From the NCBI GenBank assembly GCA_900543275.1, contig UQQL01000001.1, forward strand, positions 39,674 to 103,673: a stretch of DNA of 64,000 bases. The letters are read 5' to 3'. The stretch is from an uncultured Collinsella sp. (GTDB taxonomy: Bacteria; Actinomycetota; Coriobacteriia; Coriobacteriales; Coriobacteriaceae). Below, one piece after another: positions 14,215 through 45,227 of this stretch. Every line of letters starts with the position of its first letter. Positions within the stretch are counted from its first letter, which is position 1. The position numbers and the translations under genes are program-made. The notes beneath the pieces are model-generated. The model saw nothing but the letters and a program-made list of their open reading frames with translations, had not been told where the DNA came from and did not search any database.

Positions 14215-14334
14215 GATTGCTCCTAACTTTCAAATCCGGCCTTTTCCTATGCGCACGGTGGTCTGTCGCCCTCTGCCACCAGATGTGCCATGTTTTGCGC
14301 GCGGCGGCGCGCGGTCTGGACGTTTGCCCGGTCG

Positions 14335-15738
14335 CTAGTCGACCACGTGGGTCGTTGCGACCTGCTTGAGCCAAGCTGCCGACTTCTTAAGGCGGCGCTT
14401 GTAACCGTCCATGAGGTCGACCTCGACAAATCCGTAACGGTTCTTAAAGGCATTGGCCCAAGACCAGTTATCGATGACAGCCCAGTAGTGATATCCGCGG
14501 CATTTGGCGCCCTCGGCGATTGCCTTGGCGACCCACTCCAGGTGCTGGCGCACAAAGTCGACGCGGTAGTCGTCCTGGATGGTGCCCTCGGCGTCACGGT
14601 TCTTGTATTCGTCCATGATTCCGATGCCGTTCTCGGACACAAACCACTCAAGATCGGGGTAATTCCTAGCGCAGTCCATGCCAAAGTCGTAGAGACCCTG
14701 CGGGTAGATCTCCCAGCCGCGACTCTTGTTCATAACGGCGTTGGGCCACACGTACTCGTCGGCAAAGTGCGGCAGACCGTACTGGTCGATCTTGCTCGCC
14801 GGGGCCTGAACGCGCGTGGGGTGGTAGTAGTTGCAACCGAGCCAGTCGACAACGCCCTGCTTGAGGATCTCATGGTCGCCGGCACGGAACGGGAGCCTAA
14901 CGCCGCCCTCGGCCAAGCTGTCGAGCACGTCGGCGGGAAGCTCGCCCTTGGTAATAAGGTCGAGCCACCAGCGATTGTTGATACCGCTGGTCATGCGCAC
15001 GGCCTCGAGGTCCGCCTCGCTGGGGTTCTCCTTGGTGTAGACCGGGGTAAAGCAGTTGATCATGCCAATCTTGGCATCGGCACGAACGGCGTCCTCGTCA
15101 TAGGCACGGCGATAGTTGGCCACGGCCAGCGCGTGCGCCAACGAGATGTGATACTGCACGGTGCGAGCGCGGTTATAGTCATGGAGCTGCGGGAACCACA
15201 CGCCCTCCTGGTAGCGCTGCTCGGGCTCGACGATGGGCTCGTTAAAGGTGAACCAGTACTTGATCTCCTGGCCAAACTCGCGGAAGGCAACGTCGGCGTA
15301 ATGGGCGTAAGCCTCGACGACCTCACGGCTCTCCCAACCGCCGCGGTCAAAGAGGTGGGTGGGCATGTCAAAGTGGTACAGGTTGACGAACGGCTCCAGG
15401 CCGGCCTCGCGAGAGGCACGGAACAGCTCGTGGTACCACGCGGCGCCCTCCTCATTAAGGTTGCCGTTAGCATCGAGCAGACGACTCCACTGGATGGAGG
15501 TACGGTAGGTATCCAGGCCCAAGTCCTTCAAAATGCGAAGGTCCTCCTGGTACTTGGCCATAAAGTCATTGCCGGCATAAGAACCAACGCGGTTATAGAA
15601 CGAATCCAGATCCTGGATGGACCAGGTATCCCACAGGTTCTCGAGCTTGCCGCCCTGGTTCCACTGACCCTCAGTCTGCGGGCCGGACATAGCGGCGCCA
15701 AAGAAGAAGTCACGGGGCAGCTGATACTGTGCCATCAA
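14335..15738 (-). CDS. 6-phospho-beta-glucosidase (glycoside hydrolase family 1)
   Basis: GH1 signatures (TFNEP acid/base, ENG nucleophile region) and an N-terminal FFFGAAMSGPQTEG motif. Confidence 0.9.
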   Translation of the reverse strand: MMAQYQLPRDFFFGAAMSGPQTEGQWNQGGKLENLWDTWSIQDLDSFYNRVGSYAGNDFMAKYQEDLRILKDLGLDTYRTSIQWSRLLDANGNLNEEGAAWYHELFRASREAGLEPFVNLYHFDMPTHLFDRGGWESREVVEAYAHYADVAFREFGQEIKYWFTFNEPIVEPEQRYQEGVWFPQLHDYNRARTVQYHISLAHALAVANYRRAYDEDAVRADAKIGMINCFTPVYTKENPSEADLEAVRMTSGINNRWWLDLITKGELPADVLDSLAEGGVRLPFRAGDHEILKQGVVDWLGCNYYHPTRVQAPASKIDQYGLPHFADEYVWPNAVMNKSRGWEIYPQGLYDFGMDCARNYPDLEWFVSENGIGIMDEYKNRDAEGTIQDDYRVDFVRQHLEWVAKAIAEGAKCRGYHYWAVIDNWSWANAFKNRYGFVEVDLMDGYKRRLKKSAAWLKQVATTHVVD

Positions 15739-16039
15739 AGTCCTCGCTTTCGTGTTCTAGAGCTTCCGGTTGGAGACGGGTTTGCCTTGGCAGGTTATCC
15801 GGCGCGGGCGCGCACCTGATATCTGGATATTCAGCCCGCCAAAACAAAGCCGCCCCCAAACGGTCGGGCCTGCCGTGCGGCATGGTTCCGTTTGTTGGCT
15901 ACAACTATAGCGCTCTAATTTAATAAGTAAAGCGTCTTTTTCTTTTTTCTTTCTCGAACTTCTTTTATAAAAGTAATATGGGTGCCTCGTTGCGGGTTAT
16001 ACTTACTTATGTATTGATATATGTCGGAAAGGAGGTTCC
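15739..16039. promoter_or_regulatory. AT-rich divergent promoter/operator region between the bgl-PTS operon and the gntR-family regulator
   Basis: GC falls sharply across 15900-16040 relative to the flanks. Confidence 0.4.
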
Positions 16040-17767: not shown

Positions 17768-17925
17768 GTCGCACCAACAACCCAAACGCAACAAGGGGCT
17801 CCCCCGCCCATCAACGGGGGAGCCCCTACTCGTATCTATATATCAGCCCACCCGGCTCTCCAGATCAAAAAGCGGACGAGCAAAGCGACGTTCGTAAGCT
17901 GCAGGCCAAAACGCCACAAGGAAGA

Positions 17926-25092: not shown

Positions 25093-26222
25093 CTACTCGA
25101 GCGTACGCATGTACGCCGAAATGGCATCCAGGCCCTTCTGCAGGTCATCGGTGTTGTCGGAGTATGCATAGCCGATGCGCATGCTCTTGGGTTCCTCGAA
25201 GCAATCGCCCGGGGTGACGAGCGCGCCGGACTTCTTAATCATGTCGGTGCAGAACGTCCTGGAGTCAATGTCGTAGTCGTAATACACGAGCGCGGTGCTA
25301 CCCGCCTCGGGCTTGACGAACGACAGGTGCGGCTCGCTCTCGACCCACTTCTCCAGAACAGCAAGGTTCTGACGGACGATGCGACGGCTGCGCTCAAGGA
25401 TCACGGAAGCGTTGCCCAGAATCAGCTCCGCCACCGACTCGCTGAATATGCCGGCGGAAATCAGGTTGTAGTCGCGATGCGAGAGCAGCGCGCGACGGAG
25501 CTCCGGGCTCTTGGTGACCGCCCAGCCCAGACGCAGGCCGGCGAACGACCAGACCTTGGACATGGATGCGGTGGCGACGGCCTTGTCGTACAGGTCGACC
25601 ACGGACTCGGCGTACTCATCCGTCTGAGTAAGCAGACGGTAGACCTCGTCGCAGAGCAGCCACGCGTCGTGTTTGCGTGCGACCTCGACAATCGCCTTGA
25701 GCGTATCGGCGTCGAGCAGGGCGCCCGTGGGGTTGTCCGGGTTATTGATGCAGATGAGCTTGGTATCGTCGGTCACCAAGGCATCGAGTGCGTCGACGTC
25801 GACGTGGTAACCGTTCTTGCGATCGAGCTGAAGGATATCGACCTTCGCACCGCACATCTCGGGAATCGAATAAAGCTGCTGGTAGGTGGGCTTGACGGAG
25901 ACTACATGATCGCCCGGTCGACGAGCGTGGAAATAACCAGGGAGTTGGCGCCGGTCGCGCCGTGCGTGGGCACGATATGCCCGGGCTCGACCGTCTTATA
26001 GAGACGCGCGACCCCCTCGAGGAAGCCGGGCTGTCCCTCGATGTCTCCATAGGTGAATCGGCGCGAGCACAGGCTATCGAGCCACGCCTTCTTGTCGGTG
26101 TTCGTAAGCTCGAACAGCTGGTCGAGTGTGAGGGAGTAGACGCACGTCTCCGCAACGTTGTGGGTGCACTTGGTCTCCCACTCGTTCATCCACTGCTCGA
26201 CGGCGAAATCCTTGATCTGCAT
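25093..26222 (-). pseudogene. class I/II PLP-dependent aminotransferase disrupted by a -1 frameshift near 25905
   Basis: N-terminal ORF 25902..26222 ends ...ISTLVDRAIM*. Shifting by one base continues as PGDHVVSVKPTYQQLYSIPEMCGAKV into ORF 25093..25857. One C appears missing in a CCGGG run. Confidence 0.7.
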
Positions 26223-26246
26223 TGTCGTTTCCTTTCCTTGACTTTC

Positions 26247-27278
26247 TTACAGTTCCACCACGGTGCCCAGCCCCGCCTCGACGGCGCGGTCGTAGGCGAT
26301 TTTCGATGCCGAAAGGTCCTGAACGGCGATGCCCGACGTATCGAACACCGTCACCTGTTCGTCATCCGAACGTCCCGTAGCCGTGCCGGCGATGACTTCA
26401 CCGAGCTCCGCTTTGATGTCCTCGGGGGTGATGGCACCCTCGGCAACCGGAATCTCCAGCTCGCCGGATGCGACCGATTGCTCGCGGTCGTCGACGTAAA
26501 CAGCGGCGCGGGCGACAAGTGCCGAGGCGAGCTCCTGTTTGCCGGGCATGTCGGCACCGGCGCAGGAAATATGCGTACCGGGGCGCACCCATGCATCGGG
26601 GATGATGGGCTTGGTCGCCGGCGTGATCGTCACGATGATGTCGGCCTCTGCCGCGGCGCCTTGGCCGTCGGCCGTCGCCTCGATGGAATAGGTGGATGCC
26701 TCGCGAGCATGCTCGCAAGCGCCCAAGATATGGGCGACCTCGTCTCGCATGCGCTCGACGCGAGCCTCGGGCGCGGCATCGGAAACCGGCTCCCACACCT
26801 TGACCTCGCTCACTTTGGGACAGGCGGCGAGCACGCCCGCCACCATATAGGTGCTCATGTGGCCGGCACCCGCAACAAGCAGTTTGGACGCATCCGCCCG
26901 AGCCAGCCACTTGGCGCCGAGCGCAGCGGCAGCACCGGTGCGAAGTCCAGTGACGGCGGAGGCATTGAGCAGCGCCAACGGCTCGCCCGTCGCGTTGTCG
27001 CACAGCAGCGTAGTGCCAAAGATCTCGGGGAGCCTCTTTTTGGGATTCTGAGAGAACCAAGCAGTGAGCTTCAGGCCGAAGAGGCCGCTTCCCGCCAACT
27101 CGCCCGAGCGGATATCCATATCGGCCACGCCGGGTTCGAACTGCTCATATACCATCGGCCACGCAACACCCTTGCCCGTTGCCTTCTGGCGATATGCCTC
27201 CTCCACGGCAGCGATTGCATCCTCGATCGTCAGCACCTTGGAAACTTCCTCGGCCGAAAGCACCACCATCTGCCCCAT
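26247..27278 (-). CDS. ornithine cyclodeaminase/mu-crystallin family protein (possible ketimine reductase or cyclodeaminase)
   Basis: OCD_Mu_crystall family Rossmann motif (LLVAGAGHMS); AAAGGAG RBS. Confidence 0.85.
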   Translation of the reverse strand: MGQMVVLSAEEVSKVLTIEDAIAAVEEAYRQKATGKGVAWPMVYEQFEPGVADMDIRSGELAGSGLFGLKLTAWFSQNPKKRLPEIFGTTLLCDNATGEPLALLNASAVTGLRTGAAAALGAKWLARADASKLLVAGAGHMSTYMVAGVLAACPKVSEVKVWEPVSDAAPEARVERMRDEVAHILGACEHAREASTYSIEATADGQGAAAEADIIVTITPATKPIIPDAWVRPGTHISCAGADMPGKQELASALVARAAVYVDDREQSVASGELEIPVAEGAITPEDIKAELGEVIAGTATGRSDDEQVTVFDTSGIAVQDLSASKIAYDRAVEAGLGTVVEL

Positions 27279-27489
27279 CATCGCTCCTTTCAGCGAAAGC
27301 TTTACGTTGCTTCACTGTACGGTTTAGTAACGATGCCGCCAAGGATCATTTTTTGTTGGAATCTACAACAATTCTTAATCTGATTTTTTGCTCTATCAGC
27401 AGATATTTGAACTATTTCTCGCATCAACGGCATACGGATGTGCGATTATCCTTTTTATGCCGGTATTTATTGTAGTGATTTACAGGGTG

Positions 27490-32578: not shown

Positions 32579-34525
32579 CTAGAACGTTCCGCCGCCGCCT
32601 CCGCCGACGCCGCCACCGCCGCCACCGGAAAAGCCGCCGCCGCTGCCGCCGCTCGAGCTATCGGAACTCGAAGCCAGCTCGCGGATGGTCTCGTGGTACA
32701 CATCGTTGAACGAATCGAGCGGGGACTCGTTGCCGTAGTGATGGTAATACCACCAGTAGCAGGGGTAGTTGTCGTAGAAATCGTCGCTGTTGCGCAGGTC
32801 CGCTGGCACGGCCTCGGCCAGCTGTCGCAGCACTTCTTTCGAAACGCCCAGGGCAACGCCCATCACCAGCAGTTTGTTCCACAAGATCAGGTCGCTGGGA
32901 ATGGCCTCCTTCAGGCGCGTAAAGTCCTCAAGCCAATGCTTGAGCGCCTTGCAGCGAGCCGCCACCTCGGCGCCCTCCGGCGTGTAGCGGCGGAAGGTGC
33001 AGCTCAGGACAAAGCCCACGATCGTGACGGGGATCGAGATCATAGCGGCACCGACGTTGGCGTCCGCAAAGTCGGTATAGATCAGAGAGCCCAGAATGCC
33101 AAAGACGATGATGATACCGATAACCAAGCCGGCAACCAGGGCGATGGTGCCGTCCGATGCAATAAGCTCGCGCGCCTCCAGCTTGCCCTTAACTGCGCTC
33201 TGATAGTCCTCGAGCTTGTCGCCAACAGATGTGGTGCGCTCGCTAGCGTACTCCTCCAGCTCGCTAAACGTGCGCGAACGGACTCCGTCCTTATCGGGCT
33301 TAACGCCGGCGAAGAAGACCTTGAGCACATCGCGATCGATGCCGTCCTTCTTGGCAGCCTTCCAGGCCTCGTCGGTCACTGTGATGCGATACGTCTGCTC
33401 CTCTTTTTCGCGACGGAGCAGACCCTTCTTCTTGGTCTCGGTCGCTTCTTCCAGCTTGATCACGCGGTCGTCGGTGAGCTTCATAAGCGTGGCGATATAT
33501 GCCTGATCGGGCACGTCGTTCCAGCTCATGAGGGCCGAAAGCACGGCGGGATGGTCGGCCGAAGGCACATCGCGGAAATATTCGTCCTGGAAAAGCGGCT
33601 TGGGCTTGCGGCGGCGCAGCTTGAGCACAACGATTGTGCCGGTAAAGGCCACCGCCGCGACAACACTTAGCACGGCAAGCGCATTGGCAATCATGCGAGC
33701 GTGAGCGCGGCGAGCGTTGGCCTCGTCGGCCCATTCCTTCTCTTCGCTCAGAATCGTCGACATGCGCTTTTCGCCCGAGACGGCAAGCTGCGGCACCCAG
33801 TCGCTGGGGAAGGCGATGCGTGCCTCGGCGAATTCGCCCTCATGCACGCAGGGAATGGTATAGGTGACCATGGGCTCGTCCGCATCGAGCGACACGTCGC
33901 CCGTCAGTGGGCCGTGGCCCCATGCGCGGAAGTTATCGCCCTTGACGGCAGCCGTCCCGGCAGCGGCATTTGCAAAGTAGACTTCCATCTCGACGTCATC
34001 GGAATCCGCCGACCAGCCGTCACCCACGAACTTCCAGTAGAGCTCGGCGGTATCGGCCCAGTTCATAACCGCACCGGTCATGGAATAACTCACGTAGTAG
34101 ATTGCGCTGTCGCCGCTCTCGTGGGGGCTGAACACCTTAATCTTTACGCCGTCGTCGGACTGCTCCACCGTGTAAACGCCGTCGTCGCCTTTGTTTGCGC
34201 TGTCGACCTTGTTAAACGCAGCGTCGTCTTCCTCGACGCTCAGCACATTGACGACCACCGAGCCGCCTTGCTGGTTAGAGCCTGTATTGATATCCCAATA
34301 CACGCCGTTAATGTCGTCGTCGAAATCGAACTGGCGTCCCTCGACAACGGTCAGCGAGCCATCGGCCTCAACCGTGGCACCGATATAGGTTTGGCTCATG
34401 GAGTAGCCGTCGGCGTGCGCGACGGCAGGCAGCAGCAACAACGCAAGCGCGACGAGTGCGCAGACGGAAGCGAACCGCGCAAACAGGCGGCGCTGCCGAC
34501 AGGGCTGGGCAACGGGGGCGTTCAT
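32579..34525 (-). CDS. DUF2207-family membrane protein (signal peptide, extracytoplasmic domain, TM region, Gly-rich tail)
   Basis: Signal peptide ending AHADG, internal TM helices and a C-terminal SSGGSGGGFSGGGGGGVGGGGG tail typical of DUF2207. Start at the Met preceded by AAAGGA. Confidence 0.7.
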   Translation of the reverse strand: MNAPVAQPCRQRRLFARFASVCALVALALLLLPAVAHADGYSMSQTYIGATVEADGSLTVVEGRQFDFDDDINGVYWDINTGSNQQGGSVVVNVLSVEEDDAAFNKVDSANKGDDGVYTVEQSDDGVKIKVFSPHESGDSAIYYVSYSMTGAVMNWADTAELYWKFVGDGWSADSDDVEMEVYFANAAAGTAAVKGDNFRAWGHGPLTGDVSLDADEPMVTYTIPCVHEGEFAEARIAFPSDWVPQLAVSGEKRMSTILSEEKEWADEANARRAHARMIANALAVLSVVAAVAFTGTIVVLKLRRRKPKPLFQDEYFRDVPSADHPAVLSALMSWNDVPDQAYIATLMKLTDDRVIKLEEATETKKKGLLRREKEEQTYRITVTDEAWKAAKKDGIDRDVLKVFFAGVKPDKDGVRSRTFSELEEYASERTTSVGDKLEDYQSAVKGKLEARELIASDGTIALVAGLVIGIIIVFGILGSLIYTDFADANVGAAMISIPVTIVGFVLSCTFRRYTPEGAEVAARCKALKHWLEDFTRLKEAIPSDLILWNKLLVMGVALGVSKEVLRQLAEAVPADLRNSDDFYDNYPCYWWYYHHYGNESPLDSFNDVYHETIRELASSSDSSSGGSGGGFSGGGGGGVGGGGGGTF

Positions 34526-34646
34526 AGGCACATCCTTTGTCTGTGGTACCAGTAGCGTCATTGTCCCACGTTTGCGAGTTCATGTGACGAACATCTAGGT
34601 CAGCGGAGCGTCAAAACGGGACAAAAGTCACGCCCGCCGCCGGCAC

Positions 34647-34672
34647 CTGGGGACGTTCCTTATCTGCCGGCA
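34647..34672 (+). repeat. family A motif copy 4 (GGGGACGTTCCTTATCTGCCGGCA, degenerate)
   Basis: Shares the GGGACGTTCCT-A-CTGCCGGCA core with copy 1. Confidence 0.45.
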
Positions 34673-34860
34673 ATCTGGGACACTCCTTGGCATAGCCCGC
34701 TCCGGCAATAGATACCACTTCATAGCTCCATCACAGGTGTAGCGGCTTTGTGTGGGCGCGGCATGCGCTGATTGAGCCGCCAGTTGAGGGGCATAAAGCA
34801 GTTGAGCGAAAACGGTTTGCCCCTTTGCCGTCCGCTTGAGGATCATGTCCCCCTTTTCCG

Positions 34861-34900
34861 CGGAAACCCCGGCAGTTGCGAAGAGCTGCCGGGGTTTCTG
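34861..34900 (+). terminator. strong hairpin in the gluQ leader region (terminator-like)
   Basis: cggaaaccccggcag-ttgcgaagag-ctgccggggtttctg, a 15-bp stem, then tcgtttg. Confidence 0.4.
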
Positions 34901-35034
34901 TCGTTTGAAGGCTAGATTGATTGACGACGATTAAGGCGCCGAGCCGGTGGTCCGGCACGCGCAACGTGTGGCCTCAGCAACTTGCAGGCCACGGCAGCGT
35001 CTCCCCCACCGCGCCCCGCGCTATACTCGTCCGC

Positions 35035-36039
35035 ATGGACATCAACGCACGCAACATAGCAACAACCGCCGCCGACGCGCCAACGACGCCGGCCGCTCCC
35101 GCGCCCGTCGTGGGGCGCTTCGCCCCGTCGCCCTCGGGCCGTATGCACCTGGGCAACGTGTTCAGCTGCCTGTGCGCATGGCTTTCGGCCCGCAGCCAGG
35201 GCGGCAGCATCGTGTTACGCATTGAGGACCTGGACGATCGCTGCAAGCGCCCGGAACTTGCCGCCCAATTGATTGACGACCTGGCCTGGCTGGGGCTGGA
35301 GTGGGACGAAGGCCCCTACTACCAGCACGACCGCCTAGACCTGTACGAGAGCGCCTTGCGCCGGCTGAAAGACGCCGGCCTCACCTATCCCTGCTTTTGC
35401 ACACGCGCCGAGCTCCACGCCGCGAGTGCACCGCACGCGAGCGACGGCACGCCCATCTACCGTGGCGCCTGCCGAAGTCTTTCGGCCGAGGAGGTGGCCC
35501 GCCGCAGCGCCCTGCGCGCCCCGGCCACACGTCTGCGCGTGCCCACCGTCGACGACCTCGCAGACGACGTGATCGAATTTGTGGATCGCACGTACGGCGC
35601 CCAATGCGAAGCACTCGCCACCGAGTGCGGCGACTTTTTGGTGCGCCGCAGCGACGGCGTGTTTGCCTATCAGCTAGCCGTGGTGGTCGACGACGCTGCC
35701 ATGGGCGTCACCGAGGTCGTGCGCGGATGCGACCTGCTGGGGTCCACACCGCGCCAGATCTATCTGCAGCACCTGTTGGGACTGCCCACGCCGCACTACG
35801 GACATATTCCGCTGCTCATGGCACCGGACGGCCGCCGCCTTTCCAAACGAGACCGCGATCTGGACCTGGGCGAACTCCGCGCCCGCTTTGGCACGCCCGA
35901 AGCGCTGCTGGGCTGGCTCGCCGGGCAAACGGGCATCGCGCCGGACACCACGCCGCGCTCTGCCGAGCGGCTGGTCGAGCACTTTAGCTGGGATGTTATC
36001 CGCGCGCACCGAGAGAACATCGCTGTAACGGCCGAGTAG
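35035..36039 (+). CDS. gluQ: tRNA glutamyl-Q(34) synthetase (glutamyl-tRNA synthetase paralog GluQRS)
   Basis: GRFAPSPSGRMHLGN class I HIGH region and a truncated GluRS catalytic domain. The exact start is uncertain; an alternative GTG lies just before GRFAPS. Confidence 0.75.
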   Translation: MDINARNIATTAADAPTTPAAPAPVVGRFAPSPSGRMHLGNVFSCLCAWLSARSQGGSIVLRIEDLDDRCKRPELAAQLIDDLAWLGLEWDEGPYYQHDRLDLYESALRRLKDAGLTYPCFCTRAELHAASAPHASDGTPIYRGACRSLSAEEVARRSALRAPATRLRVPTVDDLADDVIEFVDRTYGAQCEALATECGDFLVRRSDGVFAYQLAVVVDDAAMGVTEVVRGCDLLGSTPRQIYLQHLLGLPTPHYGHIPLLMAPDGRRLSKRDRDLDLGELRARFGTPEALLGWLAGQTGIAPDTTPRSAERLVEHFSWDVIRAHRENIAVTAE

Positions 36040-36056
36040 CCAAATACGCCCCACCC

Positions 36057-36782
36057 CTACGCAACATCCCAAGGCTGGAGTTCGTCGCCCAGGCGAACGA
36101 TGCAGTCGTAGAGCACGGTATGGCGCTCGGTCGGGTTGGCATCCCGATGAAAATGCCCGTAGTACCAGCGCTTGTAGTCCAAGCGGTCTTCCAACTCGTC
36201 AAAAAATGCCGTAAGTCGATCGACGGCGGGGCAATTCCAGCCGGGCGCCGGATAGAGCGTGGGCGAAAGCATGCGCGTAGAGCAGGTGTGGGTGACCACG
36301 TAGTCGACCTTCCAGGCCACGCTGTCGAGCTTCGTCCGTGCCTCCTCAAAGTTGCGCTCGTCCGGCAACTCCTGCGGCCACCAGCTGGAATACGGAATGC
36401 GGTATTCCTTGTCCACGCTCGTGGCGCCGCCCATGATAAAGACCGTTGAGCCGTCGAGTTCAAAAACCTCGCCGCGCGTCAGGCGCCGTATGGGCGAGGT
36501 GTCCGACAGGCGCTGTGTCAGTCCGCCGTGCCACAACTCCATGGGTCGCTCCGCCCAGTGGTCGAAACGTTCGTGGTTGCCGTCGACGAACAGCACGGTA
36601 TAGGGGCGCGACTCCAGCCAAGCGATGTCGGCGCACTCCTCGGCAGAGAAATCCCACGGAAAGCCAAAGTCGCCGGCAATGATGAGATAGTCGTCGCTCG
36701 TCAGGCTTTCCCCAAGATCCCAATCGCGCAGCTTTTGCATGTCGAGGCCGCCGTGAATATCGCCCGTCACATAGACCGTCAT
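36057..36782 (-). CDS. metallophosphoesterase (calcineurin-like phosphoesterase)
   Basis: VTGDIHGG, IIAGDFG, GNHE and GHFH metal-binding motifs. Confidence 0.7.
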   Translation of the reverse strand: MTVYVTGDIHGGLDMQKLRDWDLGESLTSDDYLIIAGDFGFPWDFSAEECADIAWLESRPYTVLFVDGNHERFDHWAERPMELWHGGLTQRLSDTSPIRRLTRGEVFELDGSTVFIMGGATSVDKEYRIPYSSWWPQELPDERNFEEARTKLDSVAWKVDYVVTHTCSTRMLSPTLYPAPGWNCPAVDRLTAFFDELEDRLDYKRWYYGHFHRDANPTERHTVLYDCIVRLGDELQPWDVA

Positions 36783-36867
36783 CGGATCACCACTTCCCTG
36801 TAAGTCGCTAGCCCACATTCTGCGCGATCACTAAGCCAACCGTTCCAGCCCTTCCATCCTTTAGGAC

Positions 36868-37107
36868 CTACCCCTCGCTCTTCCATCCAAACGGGTCAAG
36901 CACCCAAAAAACCAGATCGAGCACGCCGCTGGTCATCATGGCACCGGCAAGGGCCATGCAAACATGCAGAGAACTGGCACTTCGGAGCACGTCAAATGGT
37001 CCCAGAACAGCCAGCAGCGCGACCGCCACGCCGGCCGCGCACAGCACAAGACACGGCCCTGCGTCCTTAACGCACTTCTTTGCGAGATGCTTTGCGTTGT
37101 CACTCAT
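36868..37107 (-). CDS. small membrane protein (79 aa)
   Basis: AAGGAG RBS upstream of MSDNAKH and two predicted TM helices. Divergent from the helicase-nuclease gene. Confidence 0.45.
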   Translation of the reverse strand: MSDNAKHLAKKCVKDAGPCLVLCAAGVAVALLAVLGPFDVLRSASSLHVCMALAGAMMTSGVLDLVFWVLDPFGWKSEG

Positions 37108-37308
37108 CGATATCGAACTCCTTAGAGGGTCGTTGTTCAGATGCATGCCGCCGCGGCGGAGCATGGTGGCAGGGTAAGTGTCACATATCGTGCGGACACG
37201 TCCGAAAGCTCGCGCCAAACCGCCAATCTTAATCGTCATACGCCCAAAATACGAACGATCGATCTGTTATCCTGGCGCCAACATAGTCTTTCGAAAGGTT
37301 TGGCCGGG

Positions 37309-40185
37309 ATGACTACGCAGCAGCAGATTGATATTGAATTCGACTCGCTTGCACGCGAGAACGATTCACCCAAGCTCATCGCCAACTCGAAGGCGACCGG
37401 CGGAACATTACTATCCGTTATCAAGGAGCAGCTCTCGACCTGCAGCTCTTTTGACTTTTGCGTAGCGTTTGTTGCAGACGGTGGCCTTCAAATCTTGGTC
37501 GAAGCGTCCCAGGAGCTCAAGCAGCGTGGCATTAAGGGCAGGCTGCTGACGTCCACCTATCTCAACTTCAACTCACCCGATGCGTTTCGCAAGCTCCTGG
37601 AATACGACAACATAGAAGTTCGCGTATTCCAGGGTAATTTGCATGCTAAGGGATACATTTTTGATAAGGGCGAAACCAGCACGATAATCGTCGGCAGCTC
37701 GAACATGACGCAGACCGCCCTCACCTGCAATAAAGAATGGAACGTGCTGTACCAGACCGTTGAAAACAGCCGCTTGCTCGGAGAGCTTAGAGGTGAGTTC
37801 AATTCGCTGTGGAGTGACGCCTCGACCGTTGCGCTTTCCCAAGACTGGATTGACAAATATGCCGCATATCGATCGGCGCGTCCCCCAAAGCCCAAATCGA
37901 AACCGACGTTCCAGGCAACTGTTAGCCCAACCACGAACGATCTCGAAGAACTCAAGCCCAATAAAATGCAGCAGCGCGCCCTTGAGGCGCTCGGTGCAAT
38001 CCACCGTAAGGGCGAGACTCGCGCCCTGCTGGTCTCGGCAACCGGCACTGGCAAGACCTTCCTGTCGGCGTTCGATGTGCTCGCAACTAAACCCCGGCGC
38101 GTCCTCTTTCTTGCGCACCGCCGGCGCATTATCGACGCCTCCCGTGCAAGCTACGAACGGCTCTTAGGTAGTACCTATATGTTCGACACCTATCAAACTG
38201 GCAAGAATACAAGCGATGCTACCTGTGTGTTTGCCATGTGTTCTTCGGTCGCCAAACATCTGAGCGATTTCCGTCCCGATGAGTTCGACTACATCGTCAT
38301 CGACGAGGCCCACCGCACGGGATCTCAGGGCTACCAATCCATCATGTCGCACTTTACGCCTCGGTTTTATCTGGGCATGACCGCTACACCCAATCGCACC
38401 GACGGCTATGACGTCTTTGCCCTTTTCAATCACGTCATCGCATTCCAGATCACGCTGCAGGACGCTTTGTCCGAGGAGATGCTAGCCCCCTTCCATTATT
38501 TTGGCATTCACGATCTGGAGATTGACGATGAGACGATCGAAAATACCGCCCTGTTCGGGCGCTTAACGTCCGACGAGCGTGTGCGTCACATCACCGAGAA
38601 GATCGAAGAATATAGCGTCACCAAAAGCAGCCGCAGGGGCTTAATTTTCTGCAATCGAAACGCCGAGGCCAAAGAACTGTCGCGCAAATTCAACGCTCTC
38701 GGATATCGAACGGCTGCGATTAGCGGTCAAGATCCCGATGAAGTCCGCGATGCCGTTATCAGCCGACTTGAAGCCGGCGAGCTCGAGTATATTTTCTCGG
38801 TCGATATCATGAACGAAGGCGTCGACATCCCCTCGCTCAATCAGATCATCATGCTTCGACGCACCGACTCCGCAATCATCTTTATTCAACAGCTCGGACG
38901 AGGTTTGCGTCTGAATGATGGTAAGGAATACGCACTGGTGCTCGACTTTATTGGCAACTACCAGAGCAACTTCTTGGTGCCCATCGCGCTTTCGGGTGAC
39001 AAAACGTACAACAAAGATCGCCTGCGTCGTCTCGTCCAAGAGGGCGATTCGACGATCCCCGGATGCTCGACCGTGAGCTTCGATCGTATTTCCGAGGCAC
39101 GCATCTACAAGGCCATCGATGGCGGCGATTTCACCTCCGTCAGGTTTTTGAAAAACGAATATCTCGACTTGCGCCAGAAACTCGGCAAGATTCCCTCGCT
39201 GCTCGAATTTGATCGTAACGGCTCCATCGATCCGCTGCTTATCTTCAAGAATAGCGGCCTGGGGTCCTACCACGCATTTCTATCCAAATACGAGCCGGAC
39301 TACACGGTTCAATTTTCCTCTGATCAAACCAAGATTCTCAAATTTATTTCTCAAAAGCTCGCCGCGGGCAAGCGTTTCGAAGACCTCTATTTGCTTCAAA
39401 CGCTCGTCGAAGCCGGACACGAGGGCTACCGGCATATGCGCGAGGCTGCGCTTAGGAACTACCACACACAGCTTAAGGACAGCGCCGTTAGGTCGGCAAT
39501 CACAGTCCTTAAGGGCGACTTTGCCACTCCCAAGGATTTCGTTTCCCTGCTTATTGACGATGGATGCGGACCTCGTCTGACCGAAGCGTTTGCGACCGCT
39601 CTGCGCAACGCAGAGTTCAAGCGTCAGATTCTCGAGGTGCTGGATTTTGGCATTGCGCGTAACCGACTCGACTATGCCGAGACGTACCAAAACACAAATT
39701 TCGTTCTCAACGCCAAGTACACGTACGAAGAAGTTTGCCGCTTGATGAACTGGGAAAAGAACATCAACGGCCAAAATCTTGGCGGCTACTTCTACGACGA
39801 GAAGACCATTACATTCCCCGTGTTTATTAACTATGACAAGGCACCCGACATTAGCGAGTCCATTCAGTATGAAGACCGCTTTGTTTCGCCGAGTAAGCTA
39901 GTTGCAATCTCTAAGAACAACCGCACGCTCAACTCCCCCGAGATTCAGCGACTGCAGGCATGGCCGGGCAACGGGCTAAAGACGTATTTGTTTATGCGCA
40001 AGAACAAGGACGATAAGGGTGGCAAGGAATTTTACTTCCTAGGCGAAATGCATCCGACTGGCGAGTTCAAAGCTATTAAAACTAAGAGCGGCGACAACGC
40101 CGTCGAAATCGAATATGAACTCAATGCTCCCGTGCGCCAGGACATTTACGAGTTTATGCTCAGCGATCTGAGTGAGACAGAGTAA
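37309..40185 (+). CDS. PLD/HKD nuclease - SF2 (ResIII/DEAH) helicase - DUF3427-like C-terminal domain protein; restriction or defence-like
   Basis: A single HKD motif (HAKGYIFDKGETSTIIVGSSNMT) sits at the N-terminus. Helicase motifs I (SATGTGKT), II (VIDEAHR), III (TATPNR) and VI (QQLGRGLR) follow. The C-terminal roughly 350 aa resemble DUF3427. GC is markedly lower (about 50%) than neighbours. Start at the MTTQQQ Met. Confidence 0.85.
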   Translation: MTTQQQIDIEFDSLARENDSPKLIANSKATGGTLLSVIKEQLSTCSSFDFCVAFVADGGLQILVEASQELKQRGIKGRLLTSTYLNFNSPDAFRKLLEYDNIEVRVFQGNLHAKGYIFDKGETSTIIVGSSNMTQTALTCNKEWNVLYQTVENSRLLGELRGEFNSLWSDASTVALSQDWIDKYAAYRSARPPKPKSKPTFQATVSPTTNDLEELKPNKMQQRALEALGAIHRKGETRALLVSATGTGKTFLSAFDVLATKPRRVLFLAHRRRIIDASRASYERLLGSTYMFDTYQTGKNTSDATCVFAMCSSVAKHLSDFRPDEFDYIVIDEAHRTGSQGYQSIMSHFTPRFYLGMTATPNRTDGYDVFALFNHVIAFQITLQDALSEEMLAPFHYFGIHDLEIDDETIENTALFGRLTSDERVRHITEKIEEYSVTKSSRRGLIFCNRNAEAKELSRKFNALGYRTAAISGQDPDEVRDAVISRLEAGELEYIFSVDIMNEGVDIPSLNQIIMLRRTDSAIIFIQQLGRGLRLNDGKEYALVLDFIGNYQSNFLVPIALSGDKTYNKDRLRRLVQEGDSTIPGCSTVSFDRISEARIYKAIDGGDFTSVRFLKNEYLDLRQKLGKIPSLLEFDRNGSIDPLLIFKNSGLGSYHAFLSKYEPDYTVQFSSDQTKILKFISQKLAAGKRFEDLYLLQTLVEAGHEGYRHMREAALRNYHTQLKDSAVRSAITVLKGDFATPKDFVSLLIDDGCGPRLTEAFATALRNAEFKRQILEVLDFGIARNRLDYAETYQNTNFVLNAKYTYEEVCRLMNWEKNINGQNLGGYFYDEKTITFPVFINYDKAPDISESIQYEDRFVSPSKLVAISKNNRTLNSPEIQRLQAWPGNGLKTYLFMRKNKDDKGGKEFYFLGEMHPTGEFKAIKTKSGDNAVEIEYELNAPVRQDIYEFMLSDLSETE

Positions 40186-40225
40186 CAAAGAAGGAGCGGG
40201 CCGCCATGCGACGTCCGCTCCTTTC

Positions 40226-40621
40226 TCACATAAGCCCGAGTTTCTTTTCGAGTTCCTTAACGACTTTAACGTCCGCCGGAAGCCAATCGACATCCCACAG
40301 GTTATTGGTATCGAGCCACTTCATGTCCTCGTGAGCGTGCTCTTTGAACTCGCCCGAAAGGATGCTAGCTAGGTAGCACTGCATCGACAGATGGAACGTC
40401 TCGTAATCGTGTTCGACCGTGCAAAGATAGTCAAGGTTACCGATCGTGACCTCGAGCTCTTCTTGAATCTCGCGCACGATTGCCTGCTCGCCGGTCTCGC
40501 CCGGCTCGAGCTTACCGCCCGGAAACTCCCAGCCGTCTTTAAACTCGCCGTAGCCACGCTGGCAGCTCAGGATTTTCCCGTCCTTCTGAATAATTGCCGC
40601 TGCAACATTGATTGATTTCAT
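40226..40621 (-). CDS. NUDIX hydrolase (MutT-like)
   Basis: Nudix box GGKLEPGETGEQAIVREIQEELEV. Lower GC, convergent with the helicase-nuclease. Confidence 0.8.
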   Translation of the reverse strand: MKSINVAAAIIQKDGKILSCQRGYGEFKDGWEFPGGKLEPGETGEQAIVREIQEELEVTIGNLDYLCTVEHDYETFHLSMQCYLASILSGEFKEHAHEDMKWLDTNNLWDVDWLPADVKVVKELEKKLGLM

Positions 40622-40948
40622 AACTAGTTATCACCTCTCCAGTTGAGCTCAACCAGTATAGGCGATCGACCGCCCGCCATGTCCCAGTCGCCTGAAAACC
40701 GCCTGCTCGACCAACCCTTGACGCCGTTTTGTACCGGCACCCCATCTCCCGCTATCGAGGTCTAATACTTTTCCCACTGCCACCCAAAAACTCATCCAAC
40801 ATTAATCTTGGCTCAAGAATCGCTTAATCTATAACCTGCACTATAGAGTTCGACCAAGGGCGGGGCGGCGCAACGCAGACCGCCGAACGCAACGCTCGCG
40901 CCCGAGCAAATTGCCCGGCGTCGCGCCCATCGAACGAAAGGACAGGTC

Positions 40949-41491
40949 ATGGACGACCTCGAAAAAGTTGAAACCATCCGCACCAAGTGCAACGTGAGTT
41001 ACACCGATGCCAAGGCGGCGCTCGACGCTGCCGACGGCAACGTTTTGGATGCCATCATTTGGCTCGAGTCGCAGGGCAAGACCCAGACCACGTCGGCGCA
41101 TGCCGCCACCGAGTCCGCGCCAGTCGATGAGCCCTCTGCCGAGATGGTCGCCGCGCAGGCAGCCTACGAAAAGTCGAGCGAAAAGACCGACTTCTCCAAG
41201 AAGATGGACAGCGTGTGGGAGTACCTCAAAAAGCTCTTCCGCCTGAGTCTGGACACCAAGTTTATCGCCACGCGCCGCGATGCGATCATCCTCAACATCC
41301 CCATCCTGATTCCCATCGTCGCGCTGTTTGCCTGGGGCGCCACGATATGGCTGATGCTGATTGGCCTGTTCTTTGGCATGCGCTACCGCATCGACAGCGA
41401 CGGCGACGTGCCCGGCAGCATCAACAACCTTATGGATAGCGCTGCTAACGCCGCGGACGACATCAAGCAAAATCTCAACGACGACAAGTAA
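40949..41491 (+). CDS. hypothetical membrane protein with an N-terminal UBA/EF-Ts-like domain (DUF4342-like)
   Basis: The N-terminal region (IRTKCNVSYTDAKAALDAADGNVLDAIIWL) resembles a UBA fold. One TM segment. AAAGGA RBS. Confidence 0.55.
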   Translation: MDDLEKVETIRTKCNVSYTDAKAALDAADGNVLDAIIWLESQGKTQTTSAHAATESAPVDEPSAEMVAAQAAYEKSSEKTDFSKKMDSVWEYLKKLFRLSLDTKFIATRRDAIILNIPILIPIVALFAWGATIWLMLIGLFFGMRYRIDSDGDVPGSINNLMDSAANAADDIKQNLNDDK

Positions 41492-41509
41492 TCGCAGACG
41501 GGGGCACGC

Positions 41510-42278
<769 letters not shown>

Positions 42279-42295
<17 letters not shown>

Positions 42296-43574
42296 CGCCG
42301 AGACCAAGCGCGTCACCTCCATCGCCCGTGCCATCAACTGGAGCTACATGTGGCGCCGCCTGGCGAGCTACATCTGGCTCGACCTGTGGCTGCTGGTTGC
42401 TGCGGCGGCGATCCTCATCTATGGCTATAACCAAACGCTGCCCGACGGCGCGTTTACCGCGGGATGGATCCCCGGTGCCGCCGTCCACGGCATGTCGCTG
42501 ACGCCCGCGCACGGCTGGGACCCCGCCACGCTCACCTATACCGTCGAGCTTGCGCGCACCACCAAGACCTTCCCCCTCGCGCAGGACCTCATCGCGCTGT
42601 GGCCCCTCTATCTTGTCGTTGCAGGTGGGCAGGTCATCAGCGTGCTCAACATGCTCGGCGGCGCCCGCCGCGTGCGCCGCACCATGGCACCGCTCAACGA
42701 CCTGGCCCTGCGCGTAGACGAGCTCAGCCGTATGCAGCTCTCCGGCGGCAAGATGGAAACGCTGGAGCAGGCCATCGAGCGCGCAAGCGTCGACTCGCCG
42801 AGCGTCACCACCGGCGACGCCGACCTGGCGAGCATCGAGGTCGCGCTCAACCGCCTGCTGCGCCAGATGCAAGAGGCAAAGCTGCAGCAGATGCGCTTTG
42901 TCAACGATGCAAGCCACGAGCTACGAACGCCCATCGCGGTGATTCAGGGTTACGTAAACATGCTCGACCGCTGGGGCAAAGATGACCCGGACGTGCTGGC
43001 GGAATCCATCGCGTCCCTCAAGGCCGAAAGCGAGCATATGCAGGAGCTCGTGGAGCAGCTGCTGTTTTTGGCGCGCGGCGATGCCGGGCGCACGGTCCTG
43101 CGGCGTGCGAATACCAACCTGGCCGCACTGGTCGGCGAGGTATGCGAGGAATCGCAGATGATCGATGCCGCGCACACATATCGACTGGCGTACGATGCCG
43201 CACTTACCAGCGACCCGCGCTGCGACGCGCCCGTTGACGTGGCGCTCGTGAAGCAGGCTCTGCGCGTGATCGTGCAGAACGCCGCCAAGTATTCGGACGC
43301 GGGCACATCCATCTCGTTTGGCGTGACGCCGGATGCGGGCGCGGGCACGATCGACATAAGTGTTGAGGACGAGGGCATCGGCATGAACCAGGAATCCGCA
43401 GCCCACGCGTTTGAACGGTTCTACCGCGCCGACAACGCACGCGATGCCGGCGCGCAGGGCTCGGGTCTGGGGCTTGCCATTGCCAAGTGGATCGTCGACA
43501 GCCATGGCGGTGTCATTGGCGTGACCTCAGTCGAGGGCGTCGGCAGCCGCTTTACGATTCGCCTGCCGCGCTAG
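42279..43574 (+). CDS. sensor histidine kinase (HAMP-less, HisKA plus HATPase_c)
   Basis: H-box SHELRTPIAVI and G-boxes DEGIGM, GSGLGLAI. The start overlaps the regulator's stop. Confidence 0.85.
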
Positions 43575-43593
43575 GAAGCCCCTCGGCATAAAT

Positions 43594-43627
43594 AAAGGGA
43601 TAGGGCCACACGGCCCTATCCCTTTTT
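43594..43627. terminator. bidirectional terminator
   Basis: aaagggatagggcc-acac-ggccctatcccttttt. Confidence 0.75.
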
Positions 43628-43649
43628 GCTAGCTATGGCAGCTTGTGCG

Positions 43650-44024
43650 CTACTCGCGGCACAGATGCACGGCGAAGCCGGCGAACTCGCGCTTAAAGTA
43701 CACGAGCTTGGTGCCGCCGTCGGGCAGCAGCACGCGCGACTCCTCGTTGACCTCGAGCCCGCGCTCGGCAAACCACTTCTCGGCCGCATCGATGTCGTTG
43801 ACGGCAAAGCCAATGTGGCCCTTGGTGCCACGACCGTTCTGCTTCATGACCTCGATCAGCGAATCGTTAAAGTACGAAACCGGGGTCTCGATAACGGGTA
43901 GGCCCATCATCGTCGAGAACAGCTCCGCGATCTCCAGGGCATCGGCCGGGTCGGTGGCGTTAATGCCCACGTGGGCGACGCGCATGCCAAAGAGCTCTAC
44001 CGGGTTGGCGTTCTGCTCATTCAT
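43650..44024 (-). CDS. VOC-family (glyoxalase/bleomycin-resistance fold) protein
   Basis: The VOC-like N-terminal segment (VAHVGINATD) fits a paired beta-alpha-beta-beta-beta fold. Confidence 0.65.
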   Translation of the reverse strand: MNEQNANPVELFGMRVAHVGINATDPADALEIAELFSTMMGLPVIETPVSYFNDSLIEVMKQNGRGTKGHIGFAVNDIDAAEKWFAERGLEVNEESRVLLPDGGTKLVYFKREFAGFAVHLCRE

Positions 44025-44487: not shown

Positions 44488-45111
44488 ATGCCCGATTCCC
44501 GCACACTCTGGACCGCCGTCGTTATCATCTGCATCGGCGTGTCGGTGTTCTTTAGCGTCAAAAAACGCACCACGTTCAAGCGTCTGCAGCAGCTTATGGC
44601 TGCCAAGCAGTGGGACGAGTTCGATCGTTTGCTCGACGGCAAACTCACCAGCATGCTGTACCCGCGCTACAACCGCGACTACCTGCGTCTGAACTCCTAT
44701 CTGCTGCGCGAGGACCACAAGCGCGCCGATGAGATGTTCGATTTGCTGCTGGGGCTCAATCTGCCCAAGATGCAGCGCGTCGACCTGGTGATTAAGGCCT
44801 TTAACTACTATGCTGGCCAGGAGGACCGCAAAAAGTCCAAGGAGCTTCTGCACGAGATCAAGGGCTTTGAGGGCGGTCAGGCCGAGGCGGTCGCACACGA
44901 ATGCCAGCTGATGTACGACACGATGATCCTCAAGCGCCACAACGACATTCCCGAGCTGGAGCGCATGCTCAAGGAAGCCGGTGACGACAAGGTTAAGAGC
45001 TGCCGCCTGGAATACCTGCTAGCCCTGCAGTACCAGAACAAGGGCGACGAGGCCAAGTTCGCCGAGTACTTGGAAAAGTCGGGCCAACACTCGATGGCCG
45101 TCAACGCGTAA
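44488..45111 (+). CDS. hypothetical N-terminally anchored protein
   Basis: AAGGA RBS, one N-terminal TM helix, helical repeat-like body. Confidence 0.55.
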   Translation: MPDSRTLWTAVVIICIGVSVFFSVKKRTTFKRLQQLMAAKQWDEFDRLLDGKLTSMLYPRYNRDYLRLNSYLLREDHKRADEMFDLLLGLNLPKMQRVDLVIKAFNYYAGQEDRKKSKELLHEIKGFEGGQAEAVAHECQLMYDTMILKRHNDIPELERMLKEAGDDKVKSCRLEYLLALQYQNKGDEAKFAEYLEKSGQHSMAVNA

Positions 45112-45142: not shown

Positions 45143-45227
45143 GGGGGCGTGGCGGAATTGGCATACGCAGGGGACTTAAAATCCCTCGCCGCAAGGATTG
45201 TGGGTTCGAGTCCCACCGCCCCTACCA
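45143..45227 (+). tRNA. tRNA-Leu (anticodon UAA), type II with long variable arm, CCA encoded
   Basis: Acceptor GGGGGCG/CGCCCCU, anticodon stem GGGGA/UCCCU with loop CUUAAAA, T-arm GUGGG-UUCGAGU-CCCAC, discriminator A, then CCA. Confidence 0.85.

Follow-up and report, generated by a model that had tools for sequence, protein, structure and literature searches.

Introduction

SauUSI of Staphylococcus aureus is a Type IV restriction enzyme that cleaves DNA containing 5-methylcytosine (5mC) or 5-hydroxymethylcytosine (5hmC) at S5mCNGS sites and requires ATP or dATP for its activity. It has no companion methylase and constitutes the main barrier to S. aureus transformation (PMC3141236; PMC3312211). 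Its biochemistry was described in 2011, its crystal structure in 2021 and its single-molecule mechanism in 2025. The structure revealed a dimer held together via phospholipase D (PLD) domains, with a superfamily 2 (SF2) translocase, a helical coupler (residues 618-805) and a target-recognition domain (TRD; residues 806-953) of SRA fold (PMC7913695). Single-molecule work found unidirectional and loop translocation, followed by shredding of the DNA (bioRxiv 10.1101/2025.10.16.682607). Here, we analyze a 64,000-nucleotide stretch of DNA from an uncultured Collinsella sp. (contig UQQL01000001.1, positions 39,674 to 103,673; the window), in which a low-GC islet carries a gene for a 958-amino-acid (aa) protein with PLD, SF2 helicase and DUF3427 domains together with a gene for a NUDIX hydrolase.

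The wide distribution of SauUSI-like enzymes among bacteria, and in some archaea, was known before, and DUF3427 serves as a 5mC/5hmC-binding module in unrelated nuclease fusions too (PMC6765204). The 2011 SauUSI study reported linkage between a conserved MutT/NUDIX gene and SauUSI-like genes in 60 or more genomes, and guessed that the NUDIX protein modulates the enzyme via ATP/dATP or pyrophosphate (PMC3141236). Beyond the remarks of 2011 and of a 2012 study described below, we found no experimental explanation of this linkage in the literature.

Results

The large protein is very probably a SauUSI-family enzyme

Sequence comparison makes it very probable that the 958-aa protein is a SauUSI-family Type IV restriction enzyme with a NUDIX partner, located in a strain-variable defence hotspot. 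The features of the locus, in window coordinates, are as follows.

37199..40695, no strand: low-GC islet of 3,497 bp, inserted in comparison with a Collinsella genome whose site is empty (contig L083)
37309..40185, plus strand: gene for a putative SauUSI-family Type IV modification-dependent restriction endonuclease, 958 aa (PDB 7clg_A, PADLOC mREase_IV, Foldseek)
37447..37812, plus strand: PLD-type nuclease domain, aa 47-168, with predicted catalytic residues H112/K114/N132/E143 (Pfam PLDc_2, SauUSI alignment)
37951..38913, plus strand: SF2 DExH helicase-like translocase, aa 215-535 (Pfam ResIII and Helicase_C, motif positions)
39343..40155, plus strand: DUF3427 region, aa 679-949, corresponding to the second half of the coupler and the SRA-like TRD (about aa 801-952) (Pfam DUF3427, SauUSI alignment)
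40226..40621, minus strand: gene for a NUDIX hydrolase, 131 aa, a putative (d)NTP pyrophosphohydrolase of MutT/NudG type (Pfam NUDIX and NUDIX_4, PADLOC PDC-S07)
40448..40516, minus strand: Nudix box, aa 36-58, GKLEPGETGEQAIVREIQEELEV, with RE..EE intact and Glu for the usual terminal Gly (translation)

An earlier reading of this DNA by a model working from the letters alone (the sequence-only reading) had described a PLD - SF2 helicase - DUF3427 architecture, and the domain searches bear it out. Pfam matches comprise PLDc_2 at aa 47-168 (E 3e-12), ResIII at 215-363 (E 2e-31), Helicase_C at 437-535 (E 1e-14) and DUF3427 at 679-949 (E 8e-73, profile positions 1-278 of 280). The motifs it quoted are present as well: HAKG at 112, GSSN at 129, Walker A GTGKT at 246-250, DEAH at 332-335, motif III TATP at 358-361 and motif VI QQLGRGLR at 527-534. 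A phmmer search against the PDB matched SauUSI (7CLG chain A) with an E of 2.3e-188, aligning query residues 17-950 to chain residues 25-951, and the C-terminal region is colinear with SauUSI 618-951 in the sequence alignment. The PADLOC Type IV profile mREase_IV (PDLC03658) matched residues 16-950 over profile positions 24-951 of 953 (E 3.3e-192). DUF8090 and DUF3427 are the precomputed annotations on homologues of the large protein. We also built an AlphaFold model from 37 homologues. Its best Foldseek match was again 7CLG (E 1e-48, about 945 aligned columns), whereas the next matches (RadD, XPB and HsdR) covered the helicase core only, at 1e-11 or worse. The model adds confirmation of the fold and nothing beyond that.

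These matches bear on two other views of the locus. In the first, the large protein is a RadD-like DNA-repair helicase beside a MutT antimutator, and the low GC content arose by chance. RadD is indeed the best NCBIfam match and the second-best structural match, and the NUDIX protein matches MutT models. However, the match to RadD reaches 123 bits where the cut-off is 720 and is confined to the helicase core, and RadD itself has neither PLD nor DUF3427. Together with the absence or replacement of the islet in strains that have an identical flanking protein, and with the disruption of the gene by IS1595 in one strain and its truncation in another (contigs L014 and L108, below), this renders a housekeeping role extremely improbable. 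In the second view, the locus is a new one-gene nuclease-helicase system that responds to a signal other than DNA modification, the NUDIX protein being an immunity or processing partner. The gene does look unannotated, as NCBI names its close homologues just 'DUF3427 domain-containing protein', and the NUDIX protein appears in PADLOC merely as the candidate PDC-S07. Against this stand end-to-end homology to SauUSI with retention of catalytic, motor and sensor residues, a match to a dedicated PADLOC Type IV profile (E 3e-192), and the experimentally supported role of DUF3427 as a 5mC/5hmC sensor in SauUSI and other fusion enzymes. We therefore regard a new system as very improbable. The sequence-only reading had called the locus the most likely uncharacterised system in the window; that claim falls, since the protein matches SauUSI over its full length, the biochemistry, structure and mechanism of SauUSI are published, a PADLOC profile exists and the NUDIX linkage was reported in 2011. 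Its view of a stand-alone nuclease-helicase defence gene agrees with the SauUSI-type match.

Type III restriction-modification (R-M) Res proteins and DISARM DrmA/DrmC share a ResIII-type helicase domain with this protein, and DrmC is also a PLD nuclease. We found no Mod methyltransferase, DrmB or other partner near the islet by Pfam searches of the neighbouring genes. In agreement with the sequence-only reading, these neighbours and PADLOC place the locus in neither class. For Type III R-M, the nuclease is of PLD type, a Mod methylase is missing, and PADLOC REase_III matches (E 3e-6 to 2e-3) span about 50-200 residues. For DISARM, weak DrmC matches fall on the PLD domain only (E 4e-5 to 2e-3), and there is no DUF1998 gene or methylase nearby.

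Two further observations concern the family at large. Full-length SauUSI-like open reading frames (ORFs) of 36-41% identity occur on the phage-labelled records MT837736.1, OR845003.1 and MT836554.1, which are human faecal 'Bacteriophage sp.' contigs and one S. aureus phage record; these ORFs may be misbinned host DNA or cargo of mobile elements. In contigs L071 (8842-11337) and L019 (9238-11421), a tandem paralogue without DUF3427 lies directly downstream of the SauUSI-like gene. It has PLD, ResIII and Helicase_C domains in L071, and ResIII and Helicase_C with no PLD match in L019. Its different, unannotated C-terminus may represent a second sensor specificity.

Catalytic and motor residues are conserved, and one predicted pocket residue differs

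Residue conservation was scored over 63 homologues from other genomes. Alanine mutants of SauUSI H119, K121, N139 and E150 each abolish cleavage. These residues align to H112, K114, N132 and E143 of the Collinsella protein and are invariant in 63/63 homologues. The Walker A Thr and motif VI Arg, which bind sulfate in the SauUSI crystal, are likewise invariant in all 63. In the predicted 5mC pocket, SauUSI F841, I842 and D858 correspond to F839, I840 and D856, with F839 and D856 invariant throughout the 63 homologues. The pocket Tyr proposed to contact the methyl group (SauUSI Y831) is present as Y827 or Y829, depending on the alignment, and the equivalent of SauUSI M829 is Leu or Gly by alignment. 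By sequence comparison, the locus thus carries every testable defining feature of the SauUSI family, save one pocket residue predicted from a model.

That residue is SauUSI W868, which is predicted to stack on the flipped base. The split at this position (31 Ala and 30 Trp; n=63) may mark a difference in specificity, or the docking model may overstate the role of the residue. Because the Collinsella protein and about half of the family have Ala here, the exact modification or sequence context may differ. An Ala-866 subclade recognizing another cytosine modification or context than S5mCNGS would fit both the clean division of the family at the W868 position (31/63 versus 30/63) and the Leu or Gly in place of M829. 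It would also fit a Bacteroidales locus (L028, 3691-5837), where a C5 cytosine methylase (about 900 bp away) and a resolvase lie directly upstream of a SauUSI-like gene that has no NUDIX gene beside it; the enzyme there must tolerate the sites of that methylase, so some members must tolerate some 5mC contexts. On the other side, neither F839 nor D856, to which the model assigns cytosine-specific hydrogen bonds, varies in the family, and the proposed methyl-contacting Tyr is kept. In addition, the assignment of the SauUSI pocket residues and the role of W868 come from a docking model rather than mutagenesis (PMC7913695). We thus consider such a shift of specificity unlikely.

Three points weigh against the identification of the large protein as a SauUSI-family enzyme. 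Its identity to SauUSI is just 37%, and the assignment for the Collinsella protein is by homology. Its counterpart of W868 is Ala866 (nt 39904-39906). Finally, the AlphaFold model has a mean predicted local distance difference test score (pLDDT) of 68.1 and a predicted template-modelling score (pTM) of 0.43, with residues 498-608 poor; its global template-modelling score against 7CLG reaches just 0.30-0.37 because the domain packing in the model is unreliable.

A NUDIX gene is linked to SauUSI-like genes across phyla

The convergent gene at 40226-40621, which the sequence-only reading had taken for a NUDIX hydrolase gene, does encode a 131-aa protein that matches Pfam NUDIX (E 2e-17). A 40-bp gap separates it from the SauUSI-like gene. 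Linkage of the two genes was examined in a degenerate-pattern scan with one genome per species, which gave 80 loci (36-99% identity) spanning Collinsella, other Actinomycetota, Bacillota, Bacteroidota, Pseudomonadota, Spirochaetes and Archaea. A NUDIX homologue was defined by phmmer E < 1e-5, and a locus was considered informative when at least 600 bp was available on both sides (74 loci). By these definitions, a NUDIX homologue immediately adjoined the SauUSI-like gene in 70 of the 80 loci, that is, in 70 of the 74 informative ones. It lay upstream on the same strand in 31 cases, downstream on the same strand in 22, downstream and convergent in 16, and upstream and divergent in one. No SauUSI-NUDIX gene fusion (a Rosetta-stone signal) was present in the 80 loci, and no NUDIX match occurred elsewhere in the flanks (up to 6 kb per side) of any locus.

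Pairwise divergences of the SauUSI-like and NUDIX proteins were correlated (Mantel r = 0.76, reached by 0/999 permutations), also when near-identical pairs were excluded (r = 0.63). In a reciprocal search starting from the NUDIX protein, three homologues (69-74% identical) were convergent to a SauUSI-like gene, with a 4-bp overlap, in 18/18 contexts covering two other chromosomal neighbourhoods. Adjacency, correlated divergence and reciprocal linkage together indicate that the two genes are a module moving together, and on these comparative grounds we treat them as one conserved module. The sequence-only reading was right to suggest that the NUDIX enzyme could be an accessory.

Neighbours in the four NUDIX-less loci with full context were a LysR regulator, a LuxR-type regulator, a pilin-like protein, OST-HTH, a resolvase, a C5 methylase, a pterin-binding enzyme and an MFS transporter. 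On the Selenomonas ruminantium plasmid pSRC2 (L095, 1666-5164), a NUDIX homologue occurs without a SauUSI gene, near genes for a DUF262 (GmrSD-type) protein, a nucleoside 2-deoxyribosyltransferase and a macro-domain protein. This context hints at links of the NUDIX family with other modified-base defence genes.

The NUDIX partner resembles NudG more than MutT

The NUDIX protein matches Pfam NUDIX_4 as well as NUDIX, and its best PDB matches include 3GWY, a putative CTP pyrophosphohydrolase, and 2RRK, Escherichia coli Orf135/NudG (E 6e-17); E. coli MutT matches at 2e-13. The PADLOC profile PDC-S07 aligns to residues 1-127 over positions 3-131 of 135 (E 6e-49). PADLOC PDC entries are candidates obtained by 'guilt-by-embedding', and the name 'PDC-S07' is absent from the searchable literature text. 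The Arg and three Glu residues of the Nudix box are invariant in 63 linked NUDIX homologues, and their alignment is without a conserved terminal Gly. In the window protein and the aligned linked examples, the box ends in EEL followed by E, D or N, as compared with the canonical EE-x-G. By homology, the protein is a member of the small MutT/NudG subfamily, a group of (d)NTP pyrophosphohydrolases.

Within this subfamily, E. coli NudG reached 99.5 bits and MutT 83.3 bits against a profile built from the 63 linked NUDIX proteins. The window protein has 35% identity with NudG and 30% with MutT. It also shares 'EH' and 'PAD' motifs with NudG, where MutT has 'EG' and 'PAN'. In sequence, it thus resembles NudG, a dCTP/5-methyl-dCTP pyrophosphatase, more than MutT.

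This resemblance allows a tentative proposal, one that we consider doubtful: the NUDIX partner would be a dedicated 5-methyl-dCTP/5-hydroxymethyl-dCTP pyrophosphatase and the second arm of a two-gene module against modified cytosine. Speculatively, its removal of 5-methyl-dCTP or 5-hydroxymethyl-dCTP from the nucleotide pool would stop modified cytosine from entering host DNA and thereby avert self-restriction. Alternatively, and also speculatively, it might starve phages that build modified DNA by depleting the modified dNTP pool of hydroxymethylcytosine phages. The modified deoxycytidine could come from salvage of shredded foreign DNA or be made by the phage.

Three findings tell against this pool-cleaning role. 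First, every NCBIfam score lies below its cut-off (PRK10546 for NudG, 88.6 against 156; TIGR00586 for mutt, 90.0 against 97.9; PRK10776 for MutT, 73.6 against 148), and the protein is therefore not an equivalog of NudG or MutT. Second, deletion of nudix in S. aureus Newman (Monk et al. 2012) gave a mutant that was obtainable and had no transformable phenotype (data not shown there). As it lacks the phenotype of a sauUSI deletion, NUDIX is not needed for restriction. Third, no substitute pyrophosphatase was found in the four NUDIX-less loci with full context.

It is quite possible, if still short of probable, that the NUDIX protein is instead a generic cleaner of the nucleotide pool (8-oxo-dGTP or CTP), one that accompanies SauUSI-type genes but has no specific action on modified cytosine nucleotides, or that it modulates the enzyme in another way (ATP/dATP or pyrophosphate). 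The TIGR00586 mutt score is as high as that of the NudG model, and both the S. aureus deletion result and the lack of a substitute pyrophosphatase would agree with such a role. By contrast, a housekeeping gene would not be expected to keep its adjacency across phyla in four arrangements with correlated divergence, nor to show 18/18 reciprocal linkage at different chromosomal sites; the family profile and the EH/PAD motifs favour NudG over MutT.

The islet occupies a strain-variable defence site

The GC content of the islet is 52.6%, whereas the other 3.5-kb tiles of the window average 62.1% (standard deviation 2.1, minimum 57.9; z = -4.6). GC at third codon positions is 65-67% in the islet genes versus 77-85% in six flanking genes. 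The sequence-only reading had proposed a low-GC islet at about 50% against about 65%. The dip itself holds, the islet being the lowest-GC 3.5-kb tile of the 64-kb window; its size was overstated. That reading had also proposed horizontal acquisition of positions 37108-40700, and these limits nearly coincide with the indel at 37199-40695. The indel was mapped on contig L083, which matches window 34000-37198 and 40696-44000 in two blocks about 9 bp apart and hence represents an empty site. The comparison supports horizontal acquisition of the islet.

The start of the 958-aa frame was placed at 37309, and that of the mechanical ORF list, which extends the frame upstream, at 37141. The former is preferred because homologues of the large protein are 956-958 aa at 100% coverage and the gene called in the near-identical contig L085 is 958 aa.

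States of the site were read from contigs that encode a protein identical to the 180-aa DUF4342 protein on the right flank; an exact-match look-up of the left flanking protein returned one 1.1-kb contig only. Between the metallophosphoesterase and 79-aa genes on one side and the DUF4342 gene on the other (window 37107-40949; L081-L090), at least six states were observed.

L085: SauUSI-like gene and NUDIX
L083: empty
L082 and L086: DUF6788 and a Halo_RE-like protein
L087: a 469-aa protein without assigned family, an EcoRII-C endonuclease, a C5 DNA methylase and AbiEi
L081, L084, L090 and L089: AbiEi/AbiEii beside conjugative-element genes in L081, L084 and L090; AbiEi beside conjugative-element genes, and an Eco47II-type endonuclease, in L089
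L088: Z1, HATPase_c_3 and DUF4420

The islet site is a strain-variable defence hotspot of human-gut Collinsella. The sequence-only reading had called for comparison with related genomes; in these, the locus is not conserved in all relatives, the site being empty or holding other cargo. The islet is at the same site in nine species-level Collinsella genomes, with islet DNA about 93% identical to the window and flanks 86-96% identical. Since the islet is conserved like its flanks in these genomes, the acquisition dates far back within the genus, at a site that is polymorphic. Flanking direct or inverted repeats, an integrase or an insertion sequence (IS) element were not found at the islet borders, so that recombination between conserved flanks seems likelier than site-specific integration. 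Known plasmids gave only short matches of 68-80% identity to the helicase or NUDIX genes, and neither of two plasmid matches inspected adjoins a SauUSI gene.

The SauUSI-like gene decays in some strains. In Collinsella sp. i06-0019-1H4 (L014, 4601-6001), an insertion of about 1.4 kb with an IS1595-family (ISXO2-like DDE) transposase splits the gene at about window 38640, equivalent to about 38639-38648, and leaves NUDIX intact. In L108 (5390-6877), the gene is called at 495 aa, corresponding to the C-terminal half, and is probably a pseudogene; NUDIX is again intact. L108 is a 2.4-Mb contig whose NUDIX protein is assigned by NCBI to Olsenella sp. An293.

The methylase of L087 has the C5-methylase motifs FxGxG, PCQ and ENV. 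Should its specificity be that of EcoRII/Dcm (C5mCWGG), the methylated product would match the S5mCNGS target of SauUSI. One cell could then not carry both cargoes, and strains of either type would restrict the DNA of the other.

Neighbouring features and other observations in the window

The islet is flanked by genes for a metallophosphoesterase, a 79-aa ORF, a DUF4342 protein and a two-component system. A mechanical 123-aa ORF (36868-37239, minus strand) extends into the islet; relatives call a 79-aa gene corresponding to 36868-37107, with its start at Met45. This 79-aa ORF has no Pfam match and appears hydrophobic. Just left of the islet, relatives have an insertion of about 640 bp at window 36799/36853. 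Another of about 1.7 kb is present in relatives at window 37219/37241 (L002, 4229-5933; L014, 1438-3142); the copy in L014 encodes an AAA_14 and DUF4143 ATPase, a type that recurs near the hotspot in other strains. Several relatives have a 220-bp element resembling a miniature inverted-repeat transposable element, with terminal inverted repeats of about 35 bp, after the histidine-kinase gene (window 43575/43579; L001, 12272-12494). It is absent at 43575/43579 in the window, which has no copy elsewhere.

Among the ORFs of the 64-kb window there is no C5 methylase homologue, and the window holds no second copy of either islet gene. A promoter and terminator scan of the islet gave no more matches than shuffled sequence. 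The only tRNA in the window is tRNA-Leu (45143-45227), 4.4 kb from the islet. A marginal Rfam match to Ref55, 'Enterococcus sRNA 55', lies at 17789-17842 (minus strand; 46.9 bits against a gathering score of 43, E 8.5e-4). Mildly low-GC patches (0.54-0.56) contain three plus-strand ORFs without Pfam match, at 14290-15819 (509 aa), 25962-27383 (473 aa) and 44488-45111 (207 aa). The coding strand of the first two is uncertain because a long opposite-strand ORF overlaps each.

Discussion

The islet represents a known kind of defence module that was acquired horizontally. By homology to the published SauUSI work (PMC3141236, PMC7913695, bioRxiv 10.1101/2025.10.16.682607), its large protein would dimerize through the PLD nuclease domains, and the C-terminal SRA-like domain would flip out and recognize 5-methylcytosine or 5-hydroxymethylcytosine in incoming DNA. 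Recognition would switch on the SF2 motor, which would translocate double-stranded DNA and form loops. The PLD dimer would then introduce double-strand breaks away from the site, and repeated cycles would shred the modified DNA. Host DNA would be spared by the absence of the modification, so no cognate methylase would be needed.

Compared with SauUSI of S. aureus USA300 (PDB 7CLG), the Collinsella protein has the PLD nuclease, SF2 DExH motor, helical coupler and SRA-like DUF3427 TRD in the same order and at similar length (958 vs 953 aa). The two proteins do not differ in the H-K-N-E tetrad, Walker A/B or motif VI, a cognate methylase is lacking in both, and a NUDIX gene is adjacent in both. 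Unlike SauUSI, it resides in a gut anaerobe of the Actinomycetota, and its NUDIX gene is downstream and convergent rather than upstream as in S. aureus; the two proteins differ further in the limited identity and the Trp868 substitution described above. The window proteins match PADLOC mREase_IV and PDC-S07 over nearly full length, yet these are two separate single-gene entries there and one conserved module in our comparative data. NudG and MutT share the small MutT-type Nudix fold and the catalytic RE..EE box with the NUDIX partner, which, unlike them in the E. coli K-12 regions compared, is tied to a Type IV restriction gene. Among other modification-dependent enzymes, the McaZI group (DUF3427-PD-(D/E)XK fusions) restricts 5mC/5hmC DNA with the same DUF3427 sensor, and McrBC/Mrr-type Type IV enzymes restrict 5mC/5hmC DNA as well. 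These enzymes differ in having PD-(D/E)XK nucleases with no motor or a GTPase motor, in contrast to the PLD nuclease and SF2 translocase here.

The remaining scientific interest lies in the role of the conserved NUDIX partner. If the proposed pyrophosphatase activity on modified dCTP is real, it would account for the linkage noticed in 2011 and add a metabolic 'immunity' component to Type IV systems. For annotation, the name SauUSI-type Type IV restriction enzyme can be given to genes of Collinsella and related gut Actinomycetota that are now listed as 'DUF3427 domain-containing protein'. Strains with the islet are likely to reject E. coli Dcm-methylated DNA, as S. aureus does, which recommends 5mC-free DNA for Collinsella transformation. 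Finally, the hotspot holds a 5mC-dependent nuclease in some strains and a C5-methylase R-M system in others, which fits a within-species conflict over DNA modification.

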